A DNA stretch of 64,000 nucleotides, taken from positions 64,001 through 128,000 of the IMG/VR virus record IMGVR_UViG_3300029305_005724; one strand, written 5' to 3'. Origin of the DNA: a virus (lineage: Duplodnaviria; Caudoviricetes). Of this stretch, positions 871-37,767 are shown in pieces. The notes beneath the pieces were generated by a model. It was not told the DNA's origin and ran no database searches. It worked only from the letters and a program-made list of their open reading frames with translations. The position numbers and the translations under genes were made by a program. How positions within the stretch are numbered: the first letter of the stretch is position 1; every line of letters starts with the position of its first letter.

Positions 871-2742
871 TTACTGCTCGGTTTGAATTGCAGTAACCTT
901 GAACCACTCTGTCTGAACAAAGTTCTTGTATGCAACATTAAGGATAGCATAGAAGATCTTGTTAGCAGCGTAAGTAGCATTGCTGATATACTCAAGCTCA
1001 AGGGTAGCGAAGTTGCTTCTATAAGCATCGAGAATTTCATCAACATCTGCCTTATAATTCTCAAGATCATCGCCAGTGATGAAGGAATAACGAATAGCAG
1101 GGCACTTGGTACGGATAGCCTTAACGACTTCCTGAATACCCATTACGTTATTGATATAAGACCACTGAGTATACTTCTCCTGAGAGGTATAAAGGGTTTC
1201 GATAACAAGCTGGTTATCAATGTACGAAGCATAGTTAACACGCATGTCATCAAGGATCTCCTTCTGATTCTCCTCAGGGCAAATCGTAGGAGCAAAGGAA
1301 AGAGTTCCATATACAGCATCACCAATAACCATGCCGAACTTCATACCTGCAGAAGGAAGAATCGAACCATTGTTAAGGTGAGCAACAAGTAGTTTAGCCA
1401 AGCTATAACCAACCGTAACGGAGATCTGTCTCTTCGTATAAGGATCGATTACATCATAGGACTGGGGATAGGTTGCGCAGAACATGCTCTTAACTTCGGA
1501 CTCACACTTAGCCTCGATAAGAGAAATAGAGTTCTGGCCAAGACCCTGGTCACGGAAGTACATAAAGTCCTCACGGAATACTGCAAGGGTCTCGATAACA
1601 CGCTTAACAGCATCGGGATAGTTAGCGTCGATAATAGCGCTAATCTTATACTGCTCAACGTTAAAGATAACGGGGTCAAACTTACCGTTGAATGCAGCGG
1701 TAGCCTGCTTAACCCACTCAGTTTCGTTACCAATAGGTCTATTGCCAAACGAACCATTGTCACCGTTAAGGAGAGTAATGCCATATGCATACTGAAGATC
1801 CTCAGATCCCTCAGCAATAACAAAATTATCCATAGCGGTTCCACGATAGTCATAGCCAAAGAGAAGGTCAAGGCCATAGCCCTCACCAGCCTCAAGGCCA
1901 AGAGCATTCTCTACAGCAGCAACAAAGTTATCCATGTCCTCATCAGATGCATAGCAGGAGATCTGAGTAGCATTGGTATCGATCATTGCCTTAAGAGAAA
2001 TATTGATGTTGTACTGAATAGTACTGGGGTTGAGTGCAAACGAGAAGCTCTCAGTCTCACCGCTATCCTCAATAACTGCAAAAGTATAGTAGGTATAGCC
2101 AAGATTCTTAGAAAGCTTGTAATTAGGAACGATCTTGATTCTCTTCTTGCTAGAACCACGACCATTGTCTGCAATCATATAAATAAGGTACTCACCCTCT
2201 GCAAGATTAGCTTTAACTTTCTCATAAGCATCCTTTGCATCGGAAGCACCAACTGCAGACTCAGTGCGATAACTTACCGTGTTAACGGCAACGGACTTCT
2301 CTACCATTACAGGATAAGCGGTAACAGTGGTGACCTCAGTGGTCGTAGCTGCACCCTGCTCATCTACTTCATAGTAGAGGGGCTTTCCATCTGCATCAGT
2401 CTTCTGCTCGGTAACGGTCTTTTCCGTCGTACCCAGTTTTGCGATAATACCGATATTTGCAAGAGTTGCATCGTCAGCAACAAGTCTCTTACAAAGCAAC
2501 TCAGCACCAGCGCTAATGCTGGCAGCAGCCTGAAGCAACGGCTGACCATGGCGACTGAACGAGATAGATTTACCATACATATTAAAGAAGCTCTCACCAG
2601 AAATACGAGTCCATTTCTCAGTACCCTTATCTGATGTAAAGACCGCACAAAACAGCGGTGTATTTCTAACTTCAGTTGTTTCTACGACGACACTGGCAAT
2701 ATTACTCTGGTCCTCGTAATCAACAATAACACCAGGATACAT
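871..2742 (-). CDS. Tail sheath protein
   Basis: Starts MYPGV; C-terminal sheath-like segments (IIDANYP, RVNY, WSYINNVMG); AAGGAGG RBS. Confidence 0.85.
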   Translation of the reverse strand: MYPGVIVDYEDQSNIASVVVETTEVRNTPLFCAVFTSDKGTEKWTRISGESFFNMYGKSISFSRHGQPLLQAAASISAGAELLCKRLVADDATLANIGIIAKLGTTEKTVTEQKTDADGKPLYYEVDEQGAATTTEVTTVTAYPVMVEKSVAVNTVSYRTESAVGASDAKDAYEKVKANLAEGEYLIYMIADNGRGSSKKRIKIVPNYKLSKNLGYTYYTFAVIEDSGETESFSFALNPSTIQYNINISLKAMIDTNATQISCYASDEDMDNFVAAVENALGLEAGEGYGLDLLFGYDYRGTAMDNFVIAEGSEDLQYAYGITLLNGDNGSFGNRPIGNETEWVKQATAAFNGKFDPVIFNVEQYKISAIIDANYPDAVKRVIETLAVFREDFMYFRDQGLGQNSISLIEAKCESEVKSMFCATYPQSYDVIDPYTKRQISVTVGYSLAKLLVAHLNNGSILPSAGMKFGMVIGDAVYGTLSFAPTICPEENQKEILDDMRVNYASYIDNQLVIETLYTSQEKYTQWSYINNVMGIQEVVKAIRTKCPAIRYSFITGDDLENYKADVDEILDAYRSNFATLELEYISNATYAANKIFYAILNVAYKNFVQTEWFKVTAIQTEQ

Positions 2743-2838: not shown

Positions 2839-3579
2839 TCAGTCATGGTTTCCCATCAACAACTTTTCCATAGGAGAATTTGTATCTGTAGGATTCATAA
2901 TTGCACCAATTACGCCCAGATCCCAGTTCTCACTACCAATAGAAGAGCTCGGAGAAATATACTTAGGTAGGTCTTTAATACTAATAGCACGATAAGACAT
3001 TTGATCTTTAAAATTAGTGTGTCTAAATGCTTTAGAAGGATCCTTGGCATCTCTACACATTTCGCTAATAACAACTCCAAACATTTGAAGCGTCATATCA
3101 TAAGAAGATCCATTTAATTCCATAGCATCTACAAAATAATTTTGCAGTTTATCATAAGGAATTGTAGTAGGAAGTTTGCCAGTTAAAAATATTCTATAGA
3201 AATCTTCAACATTAGCAATATTTTGAGGAACTTTAACTGATACTACTACAGCATCGCCCTTTTCAAAAATAAGCAATCTATAGTCCATCGGTTCTGTGGC
3301 CTCTTTTAATTTCAAATTTTTAGCCTTCTCTGTTCTAGAAGGCTTGCACAAGAAGACTGTAGGAAAGTTGAATCGTTTTAATCCTATATTTGTGCCATTT
3401 GGATTATAAATAGTATAATCAAGAATGCCAAGAAGATTAATATATTCTCCTTTAATTTGAGCATCACCTCTATCAAAATACAATTCTGGTACATAAAATA
3501 CGAACTGACCATCTTGATTGAATAGCAATGAGTCTCCATCACGTTTTAAAAATTTAGGCACATTATATGCCATATTCAC
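2839..3579 (-). CDS. RNA polymerase beta-prime C-terminal-like subunit (probably virion RNAP)
   Basis: FGVVISEMCRD and SPSSSIGSEN align by eye with HIEVIVSNQLRD and PSITVSMSYQ of the 14215 subunit and with the RpoC C-terminus; lies in a structural operon. Confidence 0.5.
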   Translation of the reverse strand: MNMAYNVPKFLKRDGDSLLFNQDGQFVFYVPELYFDRGDAQIKGEYINLLGILDYTIYNPNGTNIGLKRFNFPTVFLCKPSRTEKAKNLKLKEATEPMDYRLLIFEKGDAVVVSVKVPQNIANVEDFYRIFLTGKLPTTIPYDKLQNYFVDAMELNGSSYDMTLQMFGVVISEMCRDAKDPSKAFRHTNFKDQMSYRAISIKDLPKYISPSSSIGSENWDLGVIGAIMNPTDTNSPMEKLLMGNHD

Positions 3580-3600
3580 ACCTCCTTATTTGATTCAGAA

Positions 3601-4092
3601 TTAGTTATTGATATAAACCGTTCCTGTAATAGGATAAGAAGAAGTGATAGATACTGTAACAGATCCATTAGCGCATGTTGCAGTAGATGCAGTACAAAGA
3701 TCTGCCATAGTAAGATCAGGAATAAATATGGCTTTATCTGATGCAAGAATTCTAGCATCATCGATAGTAATAGATCCACCAGCTTCAATATAAACGTTTA
3801 CGAAAGTAAATCTAGGACGACTACCAAATTGATGCCATGCATTATCTAGATAGATATACATACATCCGCTTTCAAGAATACAATAAATCTTTCCGGGGAT
3901 AGGAGTAAGTAGAGCTGTTCGTGCAGATTCAGTAGCAAGAATAATTGTATCATAACTAATCTGTTTACGTGTTTGCTCATTTACGCTATCTACATAAAAG
4001 TTACCTGTATCCATGCAAAAGTAGATTGCCTCAGCTTCAAATGCTTTACTGGCCAATGAAGCTTCCATAGGCACATCATAAAACTTAAACAT
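3601..4092 (-). CDS. Fibre-associated structural protein
   Basis: ATG at 4092 after AAAGGTGG; IYFCMDTGNFYVD and PGKIYCI resemble the N-termini of the neighbouring fibre proteins. Confidence 0.5.
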   Translation of the reverse strand: MFKFYDVPMEASLASKAFEAEAIYFCMDTGNFYVDSVNEQTRKQISYDTIILATESARTALLTPIPGKIYCILESGCMYIYLDNAWHQFGSRPRFTFVNVYIEAGGSITIDDARILASDKAIFIPDLTMADLCTASTATCANGSVTVSITSSYPITGTVYINN

Positions 4093-26362: not shown

Positions 26363-28540
26363 TTACCAATATTTACTTAAATTACCGACATTAATAGTAT
26401 CCTTCATATACTCTTCTTCAGGATCGCTGTTAAAGTTTAAAAATACATCTGTTGGGATAGTTTGCACAGTAGTCTGTGCCTGAGGAACTACAACATGATA
26501 CCTATCAGCCAAAGTCTTCTGAACTAGTTTATCATTTAATAGTCTATCCATAGCAGCTTGATCTCTTGCTGTTTCAGACTTCATCCAATCTTCATATAAT
26601 TGACGACCAGGAGCATTTTCCAACTCTTCGAGCTGTTCATTAATCTCCTCATTATCAGAAATATCAAGAGTTTGAGTCATATCAGACTGGGGTTCACGAA
26701 TATCGGTTACGGCTTCTTCCAGATCTGCATCTGTTCTAAGCACACGTCTTGTGATACCCCAGTTGTTCATTAAGTCTCCACCTTTATAATATACATAAAG
26801 CGCCCATAGCCATGAAAATACTTGGTCGTCGTGAGTATTGGAACTGTGTTCGACTTTACCATTCTTTTTAACTTCCATGCCGCAGAGTTCTTCATATATT
26901 GTAGGTGAAATAATTTTATCTTTATGGTATTCTACACGATCTCTTAATATCTCAACGAGTTCTTCACGCTCTGCTTTTGTAGAATCAGATCCGTAAACTT
27001 TAGTTTTCTGTGTTCTCTTATGAATAGCAGATCCCATTATTCTTTCTTCAACAACCTTATCCTTAATTGTATAGAATAGATTTTTCTTGATTGAAGTTTG
27101 TAATAGGCGTGCTATAACACTAGATCCAAAACCGCCGTTACGTTCTATATTTACTACAGCATTGGGCAACCATTGAGAAACGATGTGGTGAATAACCATT
27201 GCTAATTCTGGTGTAGAAATAAAGTTGCTATTGAGTTCTGCAACTACTCTTGTACTATAAGAGTCTACTACCGTAATAGCAGATGAGTCTCTTTGATATC
27301 CTCCAGATACGTCAACACCAATAATCGGAGGATATTGAATATTGAATCTTTCAAATATCTTTAATTCATACTTGTTGAATAGAAGTATTGTATTAATCGG
27401 CTGTCTCAATAGACCTTTAATAGTATCAAGATCTTCAGCTCTAAAGGGAGAATTTTCAGAAGAATTCGACCATTCGAGAAGAACCTCGCGGCGGATATCA
27501 TCCCACTTCTTATTCATCGCCATGCAAAGCTGCTTGAACCACTGTTCAGTCTTACCAAGCTGCTGATATGTATACTTAATATATACGAATGTAGAATTCG
27601 TATTTGTCTCAATAATATTTTGAATTTGTTCCTTGCTAAGATCATACCATCTTTCGCTAAACGGAGTTGCAGCCTCTTTAAGGTTGAATGCCTCAATACC
27701 CTCATCTGTTGTAAGCATACCAGGAGTTGTTGTAATTAGCATACCATAAGGAGTTCCATTACGTCTAGCATTATTAGATGCAGTATTAAATGCAGGGACC
27801 ATGTTTGTATAAATAATCGTATTATACTGAATAAAGCCATACTCGTCTATATAAATTAAAGGCGTTGTACGACCACGCATTAGGCTGGCTGCTGCAACTT
27901 TGTTTCTTGCAGATGCTACTGTTCTAATACGGTTATTATTAACTGGGTGCTGCATAGTCTCTACGTTATTCTTTCCTCTAACCTTTACACCATCCGGTCC
28001 AAAGGCCTGGTCCATAACAAGATAACTTGGTAGCAGTTCACGTATATCTTTAATACGCTGCAAGTTTAATTTAGAGTCTTCAAATTTCTTATTTAAGAAT
28101 GTCATTTCAGCATTTGCCGTTCCAAAATTAAACAAATACAAATACCATGCAAGACTCGAAATAGTTTTACCTGTCTGACGAGGCTGCTCTAAGAAAATAT
28201 TCAAATTCATCATCAGACAGAAAAGAAGAGCTAAATTTCCACGGGTTAATTCGAATTTAACACCAGTCTTTTGACCAGAGTCTGGAATACGAACAACTTC
28301 TCTGAAAAAGTACCATGGATTATATATACATTCTCGTAAAACTTTTTGTTTCATGATCGAATTTAAATTAGGATCATGAGGATCAATTCTGGCCAAATCA
28401 GGATCTAGCAATACGAGCATAAATCTATAGTTTCCTATACCAGTTTCTTTCAAATAATTTGAAACTTCCAGGAAACTTTTATTAGTCGTACTCATATGAT
28501 AGTAGATTGTGGTCTGTGTTTTACCATACATTACGGCCAT
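26363..28540 (-). CDS. terL: Terminase large subunit
   Basis: Walker A PRQTGKT, Walker B IYIDE, nuclease GVDVSGG and HDDQV; promoter at 28586-28597. Confidence 0.92.
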   Translation of the reverse strand: MAVMYGKTQTTIYYHMSTTNKSFLEVSNYLKETGIGNYRFMLVLLDPDLARIDPHDPNLNSIMKQKVLRECIYNPWYFFREVVRIPDSGQKTGVKFELTRGNLALLFCLMMNLNIFLEQPRQTGKTISSLAWYLYLFNFGTANAEMTFLNKKFEDSKLNLQRIKDIRELLPSYLVMDQAFGPDGVKVRGKNNVETMQHPVNNNRIRTVASARNKVAAASLMRGRTTPLIYIDEYGFIQYNTIIYTNMVPAFNTASNNARRNGTPYGMLITTTPGMLTTDEGIEAFNLKEAATPFSERWYDLSKEQIQNIIETNTNSTFVYIKYTYQQLGKTEQWFKQLCMAMNKKWDDIRREVLLEWSNSSENSPFRAEDLDTIKGLLRQPINTILLFNKYELKIFERFNIQYPPIIGVDVSGGYQRDSSAITVVDSYSTRVVAELNSNFISTPELAMVIHHIVSQWLPNAVVNIERNGGFGSSVIARLLQTSIKKNLFYTIKDKVVEERIMGSAIHKRTQKTKVYGSDSTKAEREELVEILRDRVEYHKDKIISPTIYEELCGMEVKKNGKVEHSSNTHDDQVFSWLWALYVYYKGGDLMNNWGITRRVLRTDADLEEAVTDIREPQSDMTQTLDISDNEEINEQLEELENAPGRQLYEDWMKSETARDQAAMDRLLNDKLVQKTLADRYHVVVPQAQTTVQTIPTDVFLNFNSDPEEEYMKDTINVGNLSKYW

Positions 28541-28648: not shown

Positions 28649-29470
28649 TTAGACCTTCTTTTTCAGACAATAATTCTGAATCTCATTTGCAATATGATTT
28701 TCGAGATTTACTATAAAAATATCTCCAGTTTTAGCTACAAGCCTAACCTGACTGCCATTATTAATAACAGTTGCAGACTCGTACAAGAAATCAATCTGAT
28801 TGATCAAAGATCTGATATTAGCAGATTCATTCTTAATATAGCTAAGCACGCTAGCATTTGTAATAGGAATAAGCAGTCCATTTTTATTCATAGATTCGAT
28901 AGGCTTATTAGCAAATCCTGCAGATTCTGTTACAAGCTTCGTAGTATATGCATGAGGATGAGAAGGATAGATAACTCTATCCCAAGTAATAACTTTAAGA
29001 TTTTGAACGACATTACGACCCTTAATAGTTTCAAGAGATCCAAGAGCTCTCAAAGACCAGCTAGGAAGAACTCCTTCTCTAAGATCCTGGTCAAATTCTT
29101 CACCAAGAGCATTATTTGTACCCTTAAAATGAGCCATAACATTATTTCCATCCATCCAAATCTTAAGGAAACGAGCTACGGTATTATTGGGATCAATAGT
29201 CTGCTGACGAATCATAGCACTATCCATAGGATGACCATTCTCGGACAGCATATTTCCCGTACTAAGCAATTCTTTTGTTCTTGCGCAATTTATTTCACGA
29301 AGAAGATCGTTATGAAGATAGCAGCGGCCATTTCTATTTTCTTCTTCTGCAGTTTGAATAATTCCTTCTCCAATTACTCTTTTGCCATTCTCAGAAATAA
29401 CCTTTGCTTCCTGAGCTTCCAAAGGAGCACTTTCGAGGATTACATATCCAATCGTTTTATTCATAGGCAT
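28649..29470 (-). CDS. Prohead core protease (T4 gp21-like)
   Basis: NRNGRCY, ENGHP, SLRALGS, TWDRVIYPS motifs; ATG at 29470 after AGGAGG; promoter at 29496-29507. Confidence 0.88.
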   Translation of the reverse strand: MPMNKTIGYVILESAPLEAQEAKVISENGKRVIGEGIIQTAEEENRNGRCYLHNDLLREINCARTKELLSTGNMLSENGHPMDSAMIRQQTIDPNNTVARFLKIWMDGNNVMAHFKGTNNALGEEFDQDLREGVLPSWSLRALGSLETIKGRNVVQNLKVITWDRVIYPSHPHAYTTKLVTESAGFANKPIESMNKNGLLIPITNASVLSYIKNESANIRSLINQIDFLYESATVINNGSQVRLVAKTGDIFIVNLENHIANEIQNYCLKKKV

Positions 29471-29562
29471 TGTATACGCACCTCCTAGTTTCATTTATCG
29501 ATATGTTGGCAGTTTAAGACTTTTTAGGCATTAAAAAGATATTACAAAGCCAACGATATAAT

Positions 29563-29916
29563 GAGAGATTATTTCGATTACGGGTATGTAAGCGTGTGGA
29601 TACAGGTGATCGATACTTTTATCAAAATGTATTTTGCATTTGATAAGAGGACATCTCTTATATAAGTTTATTAAGAACTCGAGAGCTTAATAAACTTTGG
29701 GAGGATATGAAAGCTGAAGAAGTATATTTCGTAAATATATAGACCCTAAACTATATATTTGCTATAGCGATATATACGTCTTTTCTAGATTTGGAGGTGA
29801 TGGCCCAAATCTAGAGAAAATAATGAGATGACTAATGAATGAAATGTATGTAAGGTCCCTTTATACAGGGCCCGGCCTATAGGCTGAGTCTAAGCAGCCT
29901 ATAGGTTTTACTTTTT
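29563..29916 (+). ncRNA. Candidate ~350 nt structured ncRNA
   Basis: Promoter AACGATATAATG (29552-29563), at least 6 stems, terminator CCTATAGGCTG/CAGCCTATAGG; no long ORF. Confidence 0.65.
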
Positions 29917-29933
29917 AAAAATAACATATATTT

Positions 29934-30015
29934 GAAGCTCGTGAGATTTTTTCTTTTCTGGTTTTATTCCTTTCACCCGTGTACTCAGTCCTAGAGTGCA
30001 CGGGGCTTTTATTTT
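29934..30015 (+). ncRNA. Candidate anti-RBS sRNA B (~80 nt)
   Basis: Promoter AACATATATTTG (29923-29934), pyrimidine tract with UUAUUCCUUUCA, terminator stem at 29976-30004. Confidence 0.55.
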
Positions 30016-30093
30016 ATATAATAGCTATATATTATAAAAATAAGAAGTACGAAACTTCTTAATAAAAAAAAATAAATTTTGGAGGACTACGAA

Positions 30094-30684
30094 ATGGAAC
30101 ACATTGTAAGTTTTAAGAACAACAAGAAGCATGAATGTGATTGTGGCGAAAACTGTTCTTGTAATAAAAATACAGCTGTTGCTGCAAAAATCACATATCA
30201 AGAAGTAGCTATGGGCAAGATCAATCAGCTCATGGACTATGAGCAGACTCTATTCGAAGGAGTTCTTCCTAGAATGGAAGAAGCTCAGTTTAGAATTAGT
30301 GATGAAGGATATTTTGTAAGACCTAAGAATTGCGAAGCTCCGCAGCTTGCGGCTTATTTTCCTGCAATGGCTCTTCATGGTGTTAGCCACGAACCTCATA
30401 GTTGCGCAATGACTATGATTGCTGCTACGGATAAAGGTCTTAGGTATGCACTTCCTGAAGAAGATGGTAAGATTGCAGATGGTGGGCTTGTTTGTACACC
30501 TTGTATGATTGGAAATGCTCAGAGACCTAGTGCTCTTCTTATTCCTCTTGCTCATCCTGATATTGTTAGAGATGGCGTTGAGATTGCTATGCAGATTCAT
30601 AATAATATGCTGGATCAGATTGACGCTATGAAAAATGGATTGAGCGATAATGCGGAGCATATTGCTGTAAACATTCCTGATTAA
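30094..30684 (+). CDS. Early hypothetical protein with Cys-rich N-terminus
   Basis: ATG at 30094 after GGAGG; early-type promoter at 30022-30043; HECDCGENCSC. Confidence 0.75.
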   Translation: MEHIVSFKNNKKHECDCGENCSCNKNTAVAAKITYQEVAMGKINQLMDYEQTLFEGVLPRMEEAQFRISDEGYFVRPKNCEAPQLAAYFPAMALHGVSHEPHSCAMTMIAATDKGLRYALPEEDGKIADGGLVCTPCMIGNAQRPSALLIPLAHPDIVRDGVEIAMQIHNNMLDQIDAMKNGLSDNAEHIAVNIPD

Positions 30685-36070: not shown

Positions 36071-37243
36071 ATGAATAAAATAAATTATGATTTCGGTGAA
36101 TTTCATAATGTGTTCGAAAGCATGCGCACGAAATCTAATGCTACTCCCGATGAATTGAAAACTCTGAAATATGAGCTTAATAGATTCTTCGATGATTCTA
36201 CGTGTAAAGATGTACTTTATACAAATAATCTTGACAATATGTTTTTCGGTATCAAGATAATTCCTATGATCGATGCAGACGAAATTTATGAATATCTGGC
36301 AGACAATGAGAAGATTCGTATTGAGAGCTACATCGTAGAGATCGATTCCAAACTTCTTAATCCTATTATTGATCTTAATAAGTTTGAGCTTACTGCCATT
36401 CTCCTCGAAGAGGTTGCTAAGATGGTTGGCGACTCTACTCCTATGGAAAATGCTCGCAATGCTCTTACACTCTATCTCTCTTCTAATAGAACTCATATTA
36501 AGATTTCTCAGTCTGTTCATTATAAGGAACTTCTTGCTTATGGCTTGAAAGACTATTTGTCGAAGTGTACCTCGCTATTCTATAAAGATGATATTACCGA
36601 TGTTAATAGTGATGAATTTGCGATCAGTTATTGTCTCGTAGACCATCTGATTTCAGGATATAACAAGATCAAGGGTGATAATCTCAAACTATATCAGGAT
36701 AGCGAAATCAGTAAGTTTATTGTATTTAGCTGGGCTTTGAGCTTGTATAATAATATTAAAATTCATAGAGTTGGTGCTCTTAAGACATTGGCTAGATCTA
36801 AGTCTCTTACTGGTTCTAGACTTGAAAAGATGGAAATAGATAACGTTATTCGTAGAATTCAGAGAATTGATGATAGCGTTGTTCTGGAAGCTGCTGAAAC
36901 GACGAGTGGCATCCGCCTTAAGATTAAGGAAAAACTTAAGAAGGCTCGTTTGAATAATCTTCGTACTATTGACAGCACTTTTTATGAGCTGTCTATGCAG
37001 GTAAGAAATGTAGAAGATGAGCATGATGCTCTCTATCTCATGAGACAGATTAACAACTGTATTTCTATTATCGATGAGTACAAGAATCTTCAAGACTGTG
37101 ATGAGTATGAGCAAAATAAGTGGAAAGAAGCATATGATAAGTTCGTACAGCTTCGTGACAAACTTTCCAGTACTGTCGTATATAAGAATAAACACTACGG
37201 AATTTTCGTAAATTACCCGGATATTGTAGAGAATCGTTATTAA
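36071..37243 (+). CDS. Putative head protein
   Basis: ATG at 36071 after GGAGG; promoter at 36007-36018; VFES and VLEA sites. Confidence 0.6.
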   Translation: MNKINYDFGEFHNVFESMRTKSNATPDELKTLKYELNRFFDDSTCKDVLYTNNLDNMFFGIKIIPMIDADEIYEYLADNEKIRIESYIVEIDSKLLNPIIDLNKFELTAILLEEVAKMVGDSTPMENARNALTLYLSSNRTHIKISQSVHYKELLAYGLKDYLSKCTSLFYKDDITDVNSDEFAISYCLVDHLISGYNKIKGDNLKLYQDSEISKFIVFSWALSLYNNIKIHRVGALKTLARSKSLTGSRLEKMEIDNVIRRIQRIDDSVVLEAAETTSGIRLKIKEKLKKARLNNLRTIDSTFYELSMQVRNVEDEHDALYLMRQINNCISIIDEYKNLQDCDEYEQNKWKEAYDKFVQLRDKLSSTVVYKNKHYGIFVNYPDIVENRY

Positions 37244-37252
37244 CAATAAAGT

Positions 37253-37394
37253 AAAAGTTACTATCTCCCTGCCGTGATGGAACTTTGCCGTAAACCGCGT
37301 GTTTGTGTTTTCATGTTGTTGTTCGATTTTCTCCTCCGTGTAAGTTTATATTTAAAATACCAGTAGAGGCATAGCCTCTACTGGTATGATTTTT
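37253..37394 (+). ncRNA. Candidate anti-RBS sRNA C (~140 nt)
   Basis: Promoter AACAATAAAGTA (37242-37253), 5' hairpin, tract GUGUUUUCAU...UUUUCUCCUCC, terminator stem at 37357-37387. Confidence 0.5.
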
Positions 37395-37395
37395 G

Positions 37396-37767
37396 TTACT
37401 CTATATATCTTCCAATAATTTGTGGTTTAGTTATGTCCCCTCCAATAAATACAACTATCCACTTTGAGCCTGCTGGAATATAATCAGAATAATCATCAAT
37501 GCATAATGCTTTATTAAGCGGTATTTCAACATAATTACTTATAGTAATATTAGAAATTTCTAGGGCTGTCTTTTTTGTATTTCTTAAATTGCCAGGATTT
37601 TGATGAATTATATTAGATACTTTTTTAGAGTTATCTAGCGATGGCGTTAATATTGGTATAGAGAATTTAACCAATCCAGGATTGGTTTTATTTATGTCTT
37701 CCAGAGCTATAGCTATTTCTGGGTATTTCAAATCTAAATTATCATAAAAATTATTCATTGTTTGCAT
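37396..37767 (-). CDS. Baseplate spike-type OB-fold protein (gp5/GpV N-terminal-like)
   Basis: IPAGSKWIVVFIGGDITKPQIIG matches the PxxGxxVxVxFxxGDxxxPxIxG pattern. Confidence 0.65.
   Translation of the reverse strand: MQTMNNFYDNLDLKYPEIAIALEDINKTNPGLVKFSIPILTPSLDNSKKVSNIIHQNPGNLRNTKKTALEISNITISNYVEIPLNKALCIDDYSDYIPAGSKWIVVFIGGDITKPQIIGRYIE

Follow-up and report, generated by a model that had tools for sequence, protein, structure and literature searches.

What is encoded in the intergenic region to the right of the prohead protease gene in this jumbo phage? The window, a 64,000-nt stretch of viral DNA, covers 64001-128000 in a virus record of 223,865 bp. The first-pass annotation proposed a stand-alone multi-domain noncoding RNA here, transcribed on the plus strand and divergently from the protease and terminase genes, both of which do lie on the minus strand. 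The best cultured matches of the protease (22-31% identity) are found in Bacillus phage Goe21, AR9/PBS1, staphylococcal jumbo phages, LPJP1, and phiR1-37, and on this basis the window is assigned to an AR9/PBS1-like jumbo phage. More than 100 uncultured relatives encode a protease 76-84% identical, while GTDB genomes yield no relative of it. The phage's ribosome binding sites (RBSs) suggest that the host may be a Firmicute. The AR9 protease gene (L008 3428-4579) is annotated as two joined pieces, and that of Goe21 is continuous. The locus is organized as follows:

26363-28540, minus strand: large terminase, after the protease
28649-29470, minus strand: prohead protease (S77 family, 273 aa), the divergent neighbor
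29496-29507, minus strand: canonical late promoter of the protease gene, with a similar sequence before protease homologs
29552-29563, plus strand: predicted late promoter of the main RNA, a variant of AR9 AACA-N6-TA/G with a predicted start at G29563
29563-29909, plus strand: the main RNA, structured and stand-alone, bounded by a late-promoter motif of AR9 type and a terminator
29874-29916, plus strand: intrinsic terminator of the main RNA (terminator-scan prediction 29874-29907)
30094-30684, plus strand: downstream neighbor, a 196-aa protein with an early-type promoter-like motif at about 30024-30035

The major head protein gene lies further right, and tRNA genes do not adjoin the main RNA. 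The 196-aa protein has no family in PHROGs, Pfam, or Atlas; its N-terminus is short and Cys/His-rich.

The predicted transcription signals resemble the late class of AR9. In AR9, the late promoter consensus is AACA-N6-TA/G, and transcription starts at its last base (PMC5312081). A match to this motif, with the same spacing and three of the four leading bases, is found immediately 5' of the 5' helix in 14/15 sequences, where chance would give 0.0015 per position. The fourth leading base is usually T or G (G in the window and T in most homologs). The predicted start, G29563, is also where the 5' helix begins. At the other end, a terminator-type hairpin with a U-tract follows the conserved 3' hairpin in all homologs, and a sigma-70 promoter scan finds nothing at the main RNA. 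Promoter and terminator motifs together predict that the main RNA is transcribed by itself. It has no second copy elsewhere in the genome. The terminator loops in several homologs (L016, L030, L072) are 6-8-nt palindromes, probably a by-product of their long stems.

The enclosed stretch folds far better than expected, with a minimum free energy of -110.2 kcal/mol (z -6.55; 0/100 shuffles as good). Stable hairpins may equally act as DNA, for instance as an origin or pac site, in which case there would be no RNA gene. Such a reading would account for the AT-rich inverted repeats and for fold z-scores that do not differ between the strands of the window, but among the homologs the plus strand folds better in 11/11 and carries 6-19 G-U pairs against 0-7 on the minus strand. 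The fold advantage and the G-U excess argue for RNA rather than a DNA element, and the promoter and terminator motifs bracket the main RNA exactly, leaving the DNA reading extremely unlikely.

Homologs were sought in the DNA beside protease homologs and were found in 13/16 examined members of one clade. They measure 228-347 nt and are only about 40% identical to the window copy, but the architecture is kept. They open with a three-way junction at the 5' end, continue with hairpins bearing UGG(A/U)G loops and an invariant AUG, and close with a covarying 3' hairpin and a terminator. In the 3' hairpin, 94.8% of cells are paired and 4/7 pairs show two-sided changes, a result matched by 0/500 shuffles. 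Because the middle of the RNA does not align reliably when full-length sequences are run through MAFFT, no covariation statistic is claimed for the whole molecule. Each of the 17 motifs quoted in the first-pass annotation occurs once, at or adjacent to the place it was assigned, and its central proposal is borne out by the motifs, the covariation, and the lack of an Rfam family. The main RNA is almost certainly a real structured RNA gene, with these parts:

29563-29659, plus strand: 5' domain, a three-way junction whose closing helix P1 pairs 29563-29569 with 29653-29659
29574-29613 and 29619-29646, plus strand: hairpins P2 and P3 inside P1, completing the three-way junction in homologs
29664-29815, plus strand: variable middle with three long hairpins (29664-29697, 29733-29760, 29784-29815)
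29848-29853, plus strand: invariant AUG (29848-29850), then a stop codon in the window
29854-29873, plus strand: conserved 3' hairpin (7 bp, loop of 6 nt), where conservation in the main RNA is highest

The closing helix of the junction, recognized in the initial reading of the locus, is strong in the homologs but weak in the window genome, where it contributes -7.6 kcal and is missing from the centroid structure. The best partner of the 5' arm is its own RNA in 9/13 rows and otherwise mostly a sister sequence. The P2 loop displays a 10-nt motif conserved in nine loci (L016, L019, L021, L030, L057, L061, L062, L063, L072) and replaced in the window copy and in L033, L059, L069, and L070. The best site for this motif in clostridial 16S rRNA, 1204-1221, is not significant (63/300).

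The middle region varies from one to three long hairpins joined by purine-rich linkers. It contains Shine-Dalgarno (SD)-like words at 29699 and 29793; both had been described as largely unpaired, though the second lies partly inside a stem. The start- and stop-dense linker noted at first is likewise only partly conserved, in that its last AUG (29848-29850) is kept and the rest of its sequence is not. A stop codon directly follows this AUG in 9/11 non-redundant homologs, and no conserved reading frame extends from it. A role as a true start codon is not supported, as no strong SD stands in front of it (-1 to -7 kcal vs. a median of -10.2). A pseudoknot between the bases flanking the AUG and the loop of the 3' hairpin was rejected on topological grounds, since we infer that a 2-nt linker would need to span 10 bp.

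The distribution of the RNA is patchy. It was not found in 3/16 clade members, one of which is 89% complete while two were examined at the locus only, nor in more distant relatives, including Goe21 and three records at least 90% complete. A model of the 3' element gives no match in distant relatives, where several records are incomplete, and the model itself is short and trained on the clade. Pattern scans of viral contigs revealed no further homolog, and BLASTN comparison of the intergenic region with cultured phages gave chance matches only. In L032, which lacks the main RNA, a short late unit of ~150 nt is found instead (about 3560-3900, minus strand), then a longer unit resembling RNA2, the second small RNA of the window, with two anti-SD modules. 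In L059 (about 2010-2125, minus strand), additional hairpins and another terminator-like stem separate the main RNA terminator from RNA2 and may represent a third small RNA. L196 (1203-1701) and L197 (1939-2981) contain non-coding inserts, two in a row in L197, which we take to resemble group I introns.

The linkage to the protease gene is also not fixed. Inserted genes part the main RNA from the protease in three lineages (L030, L063, L069), and its position after the terminator of those genes indicates that it is a unit of its own. In L030 (3080-3832) and L063 (1677-2369), the gene lying between protease and main RNA encodes short Trp-containing repeats with a faint Myb-like match.

These observations bear on the proposal that the RNA serves head assembly or DNA packaging as a structural component, in the way that pRNA does in phi29. 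Like pRNA, it is phage-encoded and multi-helix with a three-way junction at its 5' end, and it has a late promoter, adjoins the prohead protease gene, and lies near the terminase and major head genes. However, it has no conserved complementary loop pair, since self-matches amount to 4 nt or are palindromic apart from one 6-nt match in a single sequence. It also lacks an Rfam match and belongs to a jumbo phage with a terminase. The protease linkage broken in three lineages counts against the analogy, as does the apparent absence from three clade members (one 89% complete, two seen locally) and from distant relatives, because a packaging part should be essential. A pRNA analogue, as first suggested, is thus very unlikely.

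The main RNA belongs to no family tested and is regarded as a new RNA family. Neither the window nor 12 homolog loci match an Rfam family (best score 27.7 bits vs. a threshold of 60), and an ARAGORN-type search finds no tRNA or tmRNA in the window, in line with the initial assessment. The literature searched contains no description of it, although a fragment may be listed among the 10,006 viral candidates of PMC10690425 (29-151 nt in its DNA-virus set). Other intergenic phage RNAs of several hundred nucleotides and no known function have been described, among them GOLLD, ROOL, the Kayvirus lnc001 and lnc002 (PMC9241854), and misc_4 of phiR1-37 (PMC4848604). The main RNA matches neither GOLLD nor ROOL in Rfam and is not located beside tRNA genes. 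It is also unrelated to misc_4, which lacks both a UGG(A/U)G word and a complement to 16S helix 28 (-6.8 kcal).

The most striking feature of the family is its loop motif. UGG(A/U)G occurs 26 times across homologs where 5.8 are expected (z 8.5), and 20/25 copies are unpaired. The broader UGG-N-G is enriched at z 7.3 and GG(A/U)G at z 4.0. Among the 26 loop motifs, GGU is present in 12, and N is mostly A (14/26). An A follows UGGUG in 7/12 cases, as an SD would continue. In contrast, U stands directly before GG in 26/33 loop words, compared with 27/180 real RBSs of the window phage, a preference that SD pairing does not explain.

Short motifs repeated in the loops of long, sequence-variable stems, together with a variable number of hairpins and a terminal terminator, are what would be expected of a multivalent protein decoy or scaffold. 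Several copies of a single RNA-binding protein or nuclease, of phage or host origin, may dock on the UGG(A/U)G loops, with a second protein or a stabilizer on the 3' hairpin, in the manner of CsrB or RsmZ but with a different protein. The U before GG (26/33) suits protein recognition better than SD pairing, and the proposal is independent of the borderline 16S statistic described below. It nevertheless lacks a candidate protein, as no CsrA or RegB homolog was found in the genome (the RegB search had no positive control), and it leaves the 16S complementarity as chance. We regard a protein decoy or scaffold as possible, and as a close rival, nearly as likely as a 30S-binding RNA.

The strict version of this idea, a sponge for CsrA (RsmA), was among the functions first put forward. 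The main RNA resembles CsrB, CsrC, RsmY, and RsmZ in being stand-alone, with several hairpins, a repeated GG-containing loop motif (some of the loops being GGA), and a terminator at the end. It differs in its motif, which is UGG(A/U)G and not ANGGA, in its stems of 10-18 bp, in the additional three-way junction and conserved 3' hairpin, and in the lack of an Rfam match. ANGGA is not enriched (12 vs. 10.9, z 0.3), and nearly half of the loop motifs (12/26) are GGU, which together make CsrA titration highly improbable.

A further use for the loops would be to capture tRNA. In T-box RNAs, the antiterminator bulge pairs with the NCCA end of uncharged tRNA, and UGGN loops that did likewise could buffer tRNAs or damp the stringent response. 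The enrichment of UGG-N-G (z 7.3) matches C72-N73-CCA and would account for the U before GG. Most tRNAs have A73, which calls for U at N, but N is mostly A (14/26). The T-box antiterminator context is also absent, with no Rfam T-box match, and the UGGN words sit in hairpin loops followed by G-purine. This function is accordingly quite unlikely.

The main RNA does not stand alone among late small RNAs of this genome. It is followed by RNA2 in 12 loci (the window, L016, L019, L021, L030, L033, L057, L059, L063, L069, L070, and L072), though RNA2 is not evident in L061/L062, and at least five further late pyrimidine-rich RNA units exist in the genome:

29923-30012, plus strand: RNA2, with a canonical late promoter (29923-29934), a pyrimidine-rich anti-SD core, and a terminator (29976-30004)
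G000 C1 37807-38250, 56838-57250, and 58523-58650: late units with pyrimidine-rich anti-SD/anti-AUG modules
G000 C1 195423-195255 (minus strand) and window 37242-37394: two further late units of the same kind

In most homologs, the RNA2 core is antisense to an SD, a spacer, and an AUG-CCA (Met-Pro) start. None of the window phage's own gene starts is a better target for RNA2 than shuffles, and its target may therefore be a host mRNA. The unit at G000 C1 56838 has about six modules within a closing stem. Outside the window, at about 37589-37720 of G000 C1, an intergenic array of ~7-8 exact tandem copies of a 17-bp unit sits just before a long structured late RNA. The late anti-SD/anti-AUG units suggest a family of translation-start antisense RNAs.

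Such RNAs invite the idea that the main RNA is their sponge, with SD- and start-codon-like loops titrating anti-SD/anti-AUG small RNAs of the phage itself, of a competing phage, or of the host. Its polarity is opposite to that of RNA2 and the five other late pyrimidine-rich RNAs, and RNA2 moves along with it when genes are inserted, as at L030 and L063, where the two stay together despite the inserted gene. Yet pairing of each main RNA with its own RNA2 shows no cognate advantage (p 0.48), and pairing with the six small RNAs of the phage is equal to that of shuffles. The two RNAs also occur apart, as L032 has an RNA2-like unit without the main RNA and L061 has the main RNA without an evident RNA2. 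A decoy for the phage's own anti-SD RNAs, one of the initial suggestions, thus fails both pairing comparisons, and a sponge of any of these kinds is improbable.

A different partner is suggested by the 3' hairpin, the end of whose loop and 3' arm are complementary to the neck helix of the small ribosomal subunit:

29864-29875, plus strand: 12 nt complementary to 16S rRNA 1383-1394, the 3' strand of helix 28 (h28), covering the last part of the 3' hairpin loop together with the 3' arm

Within the rRNA operon of E. coli, the best mean partner of the 12-mer is 16S 1381-1398, at -18.1 kcal vs. -11.3 for the next site. Controls score as well in 0/300 Markov rRNAs, 0/1000 column shuffles, and 0/96 phage blocks for the 12-mer, and in 8/300, 9/1000, and 1/96, respectively, for a 15-mer. 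As the match was noticed by eye before testing, the whole 40-column block was also scored to correct for the choice of segment. With stacking energies, 4/600 and 7/400 controls do as well (p 0.007 and 0.018), while simple pair scores are not significant (160/2000 and 126/600, p 0.08 and 0.21). Taking both scorings together, the corrected complementarity is suggestive only. No special rRNA partner was found for either the 5' end of the main RNA or the 5' arm of its 3' hairpin.

The details of the duplex can be read in two ways. Among 168 duplex cells between main RNA and 16S, 132 are Watson-Crick, 26 are G-U, and 10 are mismatched. The duplex (-8.7 to -22.7 kcal) is stronger than the 3' hairpin (-4.5 to -9.6). 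A comparison of 80 bacterial 16S genes shows variation in the target at 1383, 1385, 1388, and 1389. Changes from G to A in the main RNA lie opposite 1383, 1388, and 1389, positions with natural U variants in 16S, or opposite U1390. In 5 lineages, the middle of the stem keeps a C that disrupts a hairpin pair yet suits G1387. On the other hand, 3/11 sequences carry mismatches to the most common 16S type within the duplex, and independent events are few, with four of the sequences forming one clade. These substitution patterns also fit ordinary stem evolution, in which transitions are expected in any stem, and pairing of the arm within the covarying hairpin alone explains most substitutions.

The site is biologically plausible given the structure of the inactive 30S subunit. 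In inactive or immature 30S, nt 921-925 part from 1391-1397, and the latter are unpaired in the inactive state (PMC11182017). Leader and 3'-tail helices (hALT; PMC11182017), which compete with native 16S helices as the 30S subunit matures, share with the present proposal a strand exchange at helix 28 and a switch between active and inactive 30S, but they act in cis within rRNA, whereas the main RNA would be a viral RNA acting in trans. A mode of action in common is also proposed with S. aureus SprF1 and Haloferax Val-tRF, noncoding RNAs that bind ribosomes via a purine-rich sequence and compete with mRNA at initiation (PMC8938821). SprF1 is a type I antitoxin and Val-tRF a tRNA fragment, and neither is related in sequence to the main RNA. 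The review of ribosome-associated noncoding RNAs describing them (PMC8938821) makes no mention of phage.

We tentatively favor a late, stand-alone, trans-acting RNA that would bind or act on the host 30S through its SD-like loops and its helix-28 arm, each mechanistic step of which we infer. The non-virion RNA polymerase of the phage would make the main RNA late in infection. GGAG/GGUG words in hairpin loops and linkers would pair with the 3' tail of 16S rRNA, tethering the 30S subunit. The loop of the 3' hairpin would then nucleate on 16S 1391-1394, freed from helix 28 in immature or inactive 30S (PMC11182017), and the 3' arm would zip onto 1383-1390, displacing the native 923-933 strand. Until nucleation, the weak 3' hairpin would mask the arm. 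As a result, free or immature 30S would be kept from the active state, a hold that may form one arm of a late translation-control program including several anti-SD/anti-AUG small RNAs.

A ribosome decoy, as the first-pass annotation had it, draws on the enrichment of SD-like words (GG(A/U)G, z 4.0) and the borderline h28 complementarity, while the U before GG and the lack of a strong SD at the AUG do not fit it. For action on the 30S speaks the presence of several late anti-SD small RNAs in the genome; against it, a phage late in infection needs ribosomes itself. The specific step of base-pairing in trans with the conserved neck helix, by which the RNA would lock host 30S in an inactive or immature form and so serve as a naturally occurring antisense RNA that inhibits or modulates the ribosome, appears rather unlikely. 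The probability not claimed by the readings discussed here is left for functions not thought of.

At minimum, the main RNA establishes a strongly covarying new RNA family of AR9-like jumbo phages. With several further late small RNAs directed at translation starts in the same genome, this suggests that translation is controlled in part by RNA, a layer of regulation that the papers considered here on AR9, phiR1-37, and phage K do not describe. If the pairing with helix 28 is true, a viral RNA would act on the ribosome by rRNA invasion, a new kind of viral ribosome control. As the target sequence is nearly universal, such an RNA would also offer a direct tool for an old question, the role of the inactive 30S state in cells.
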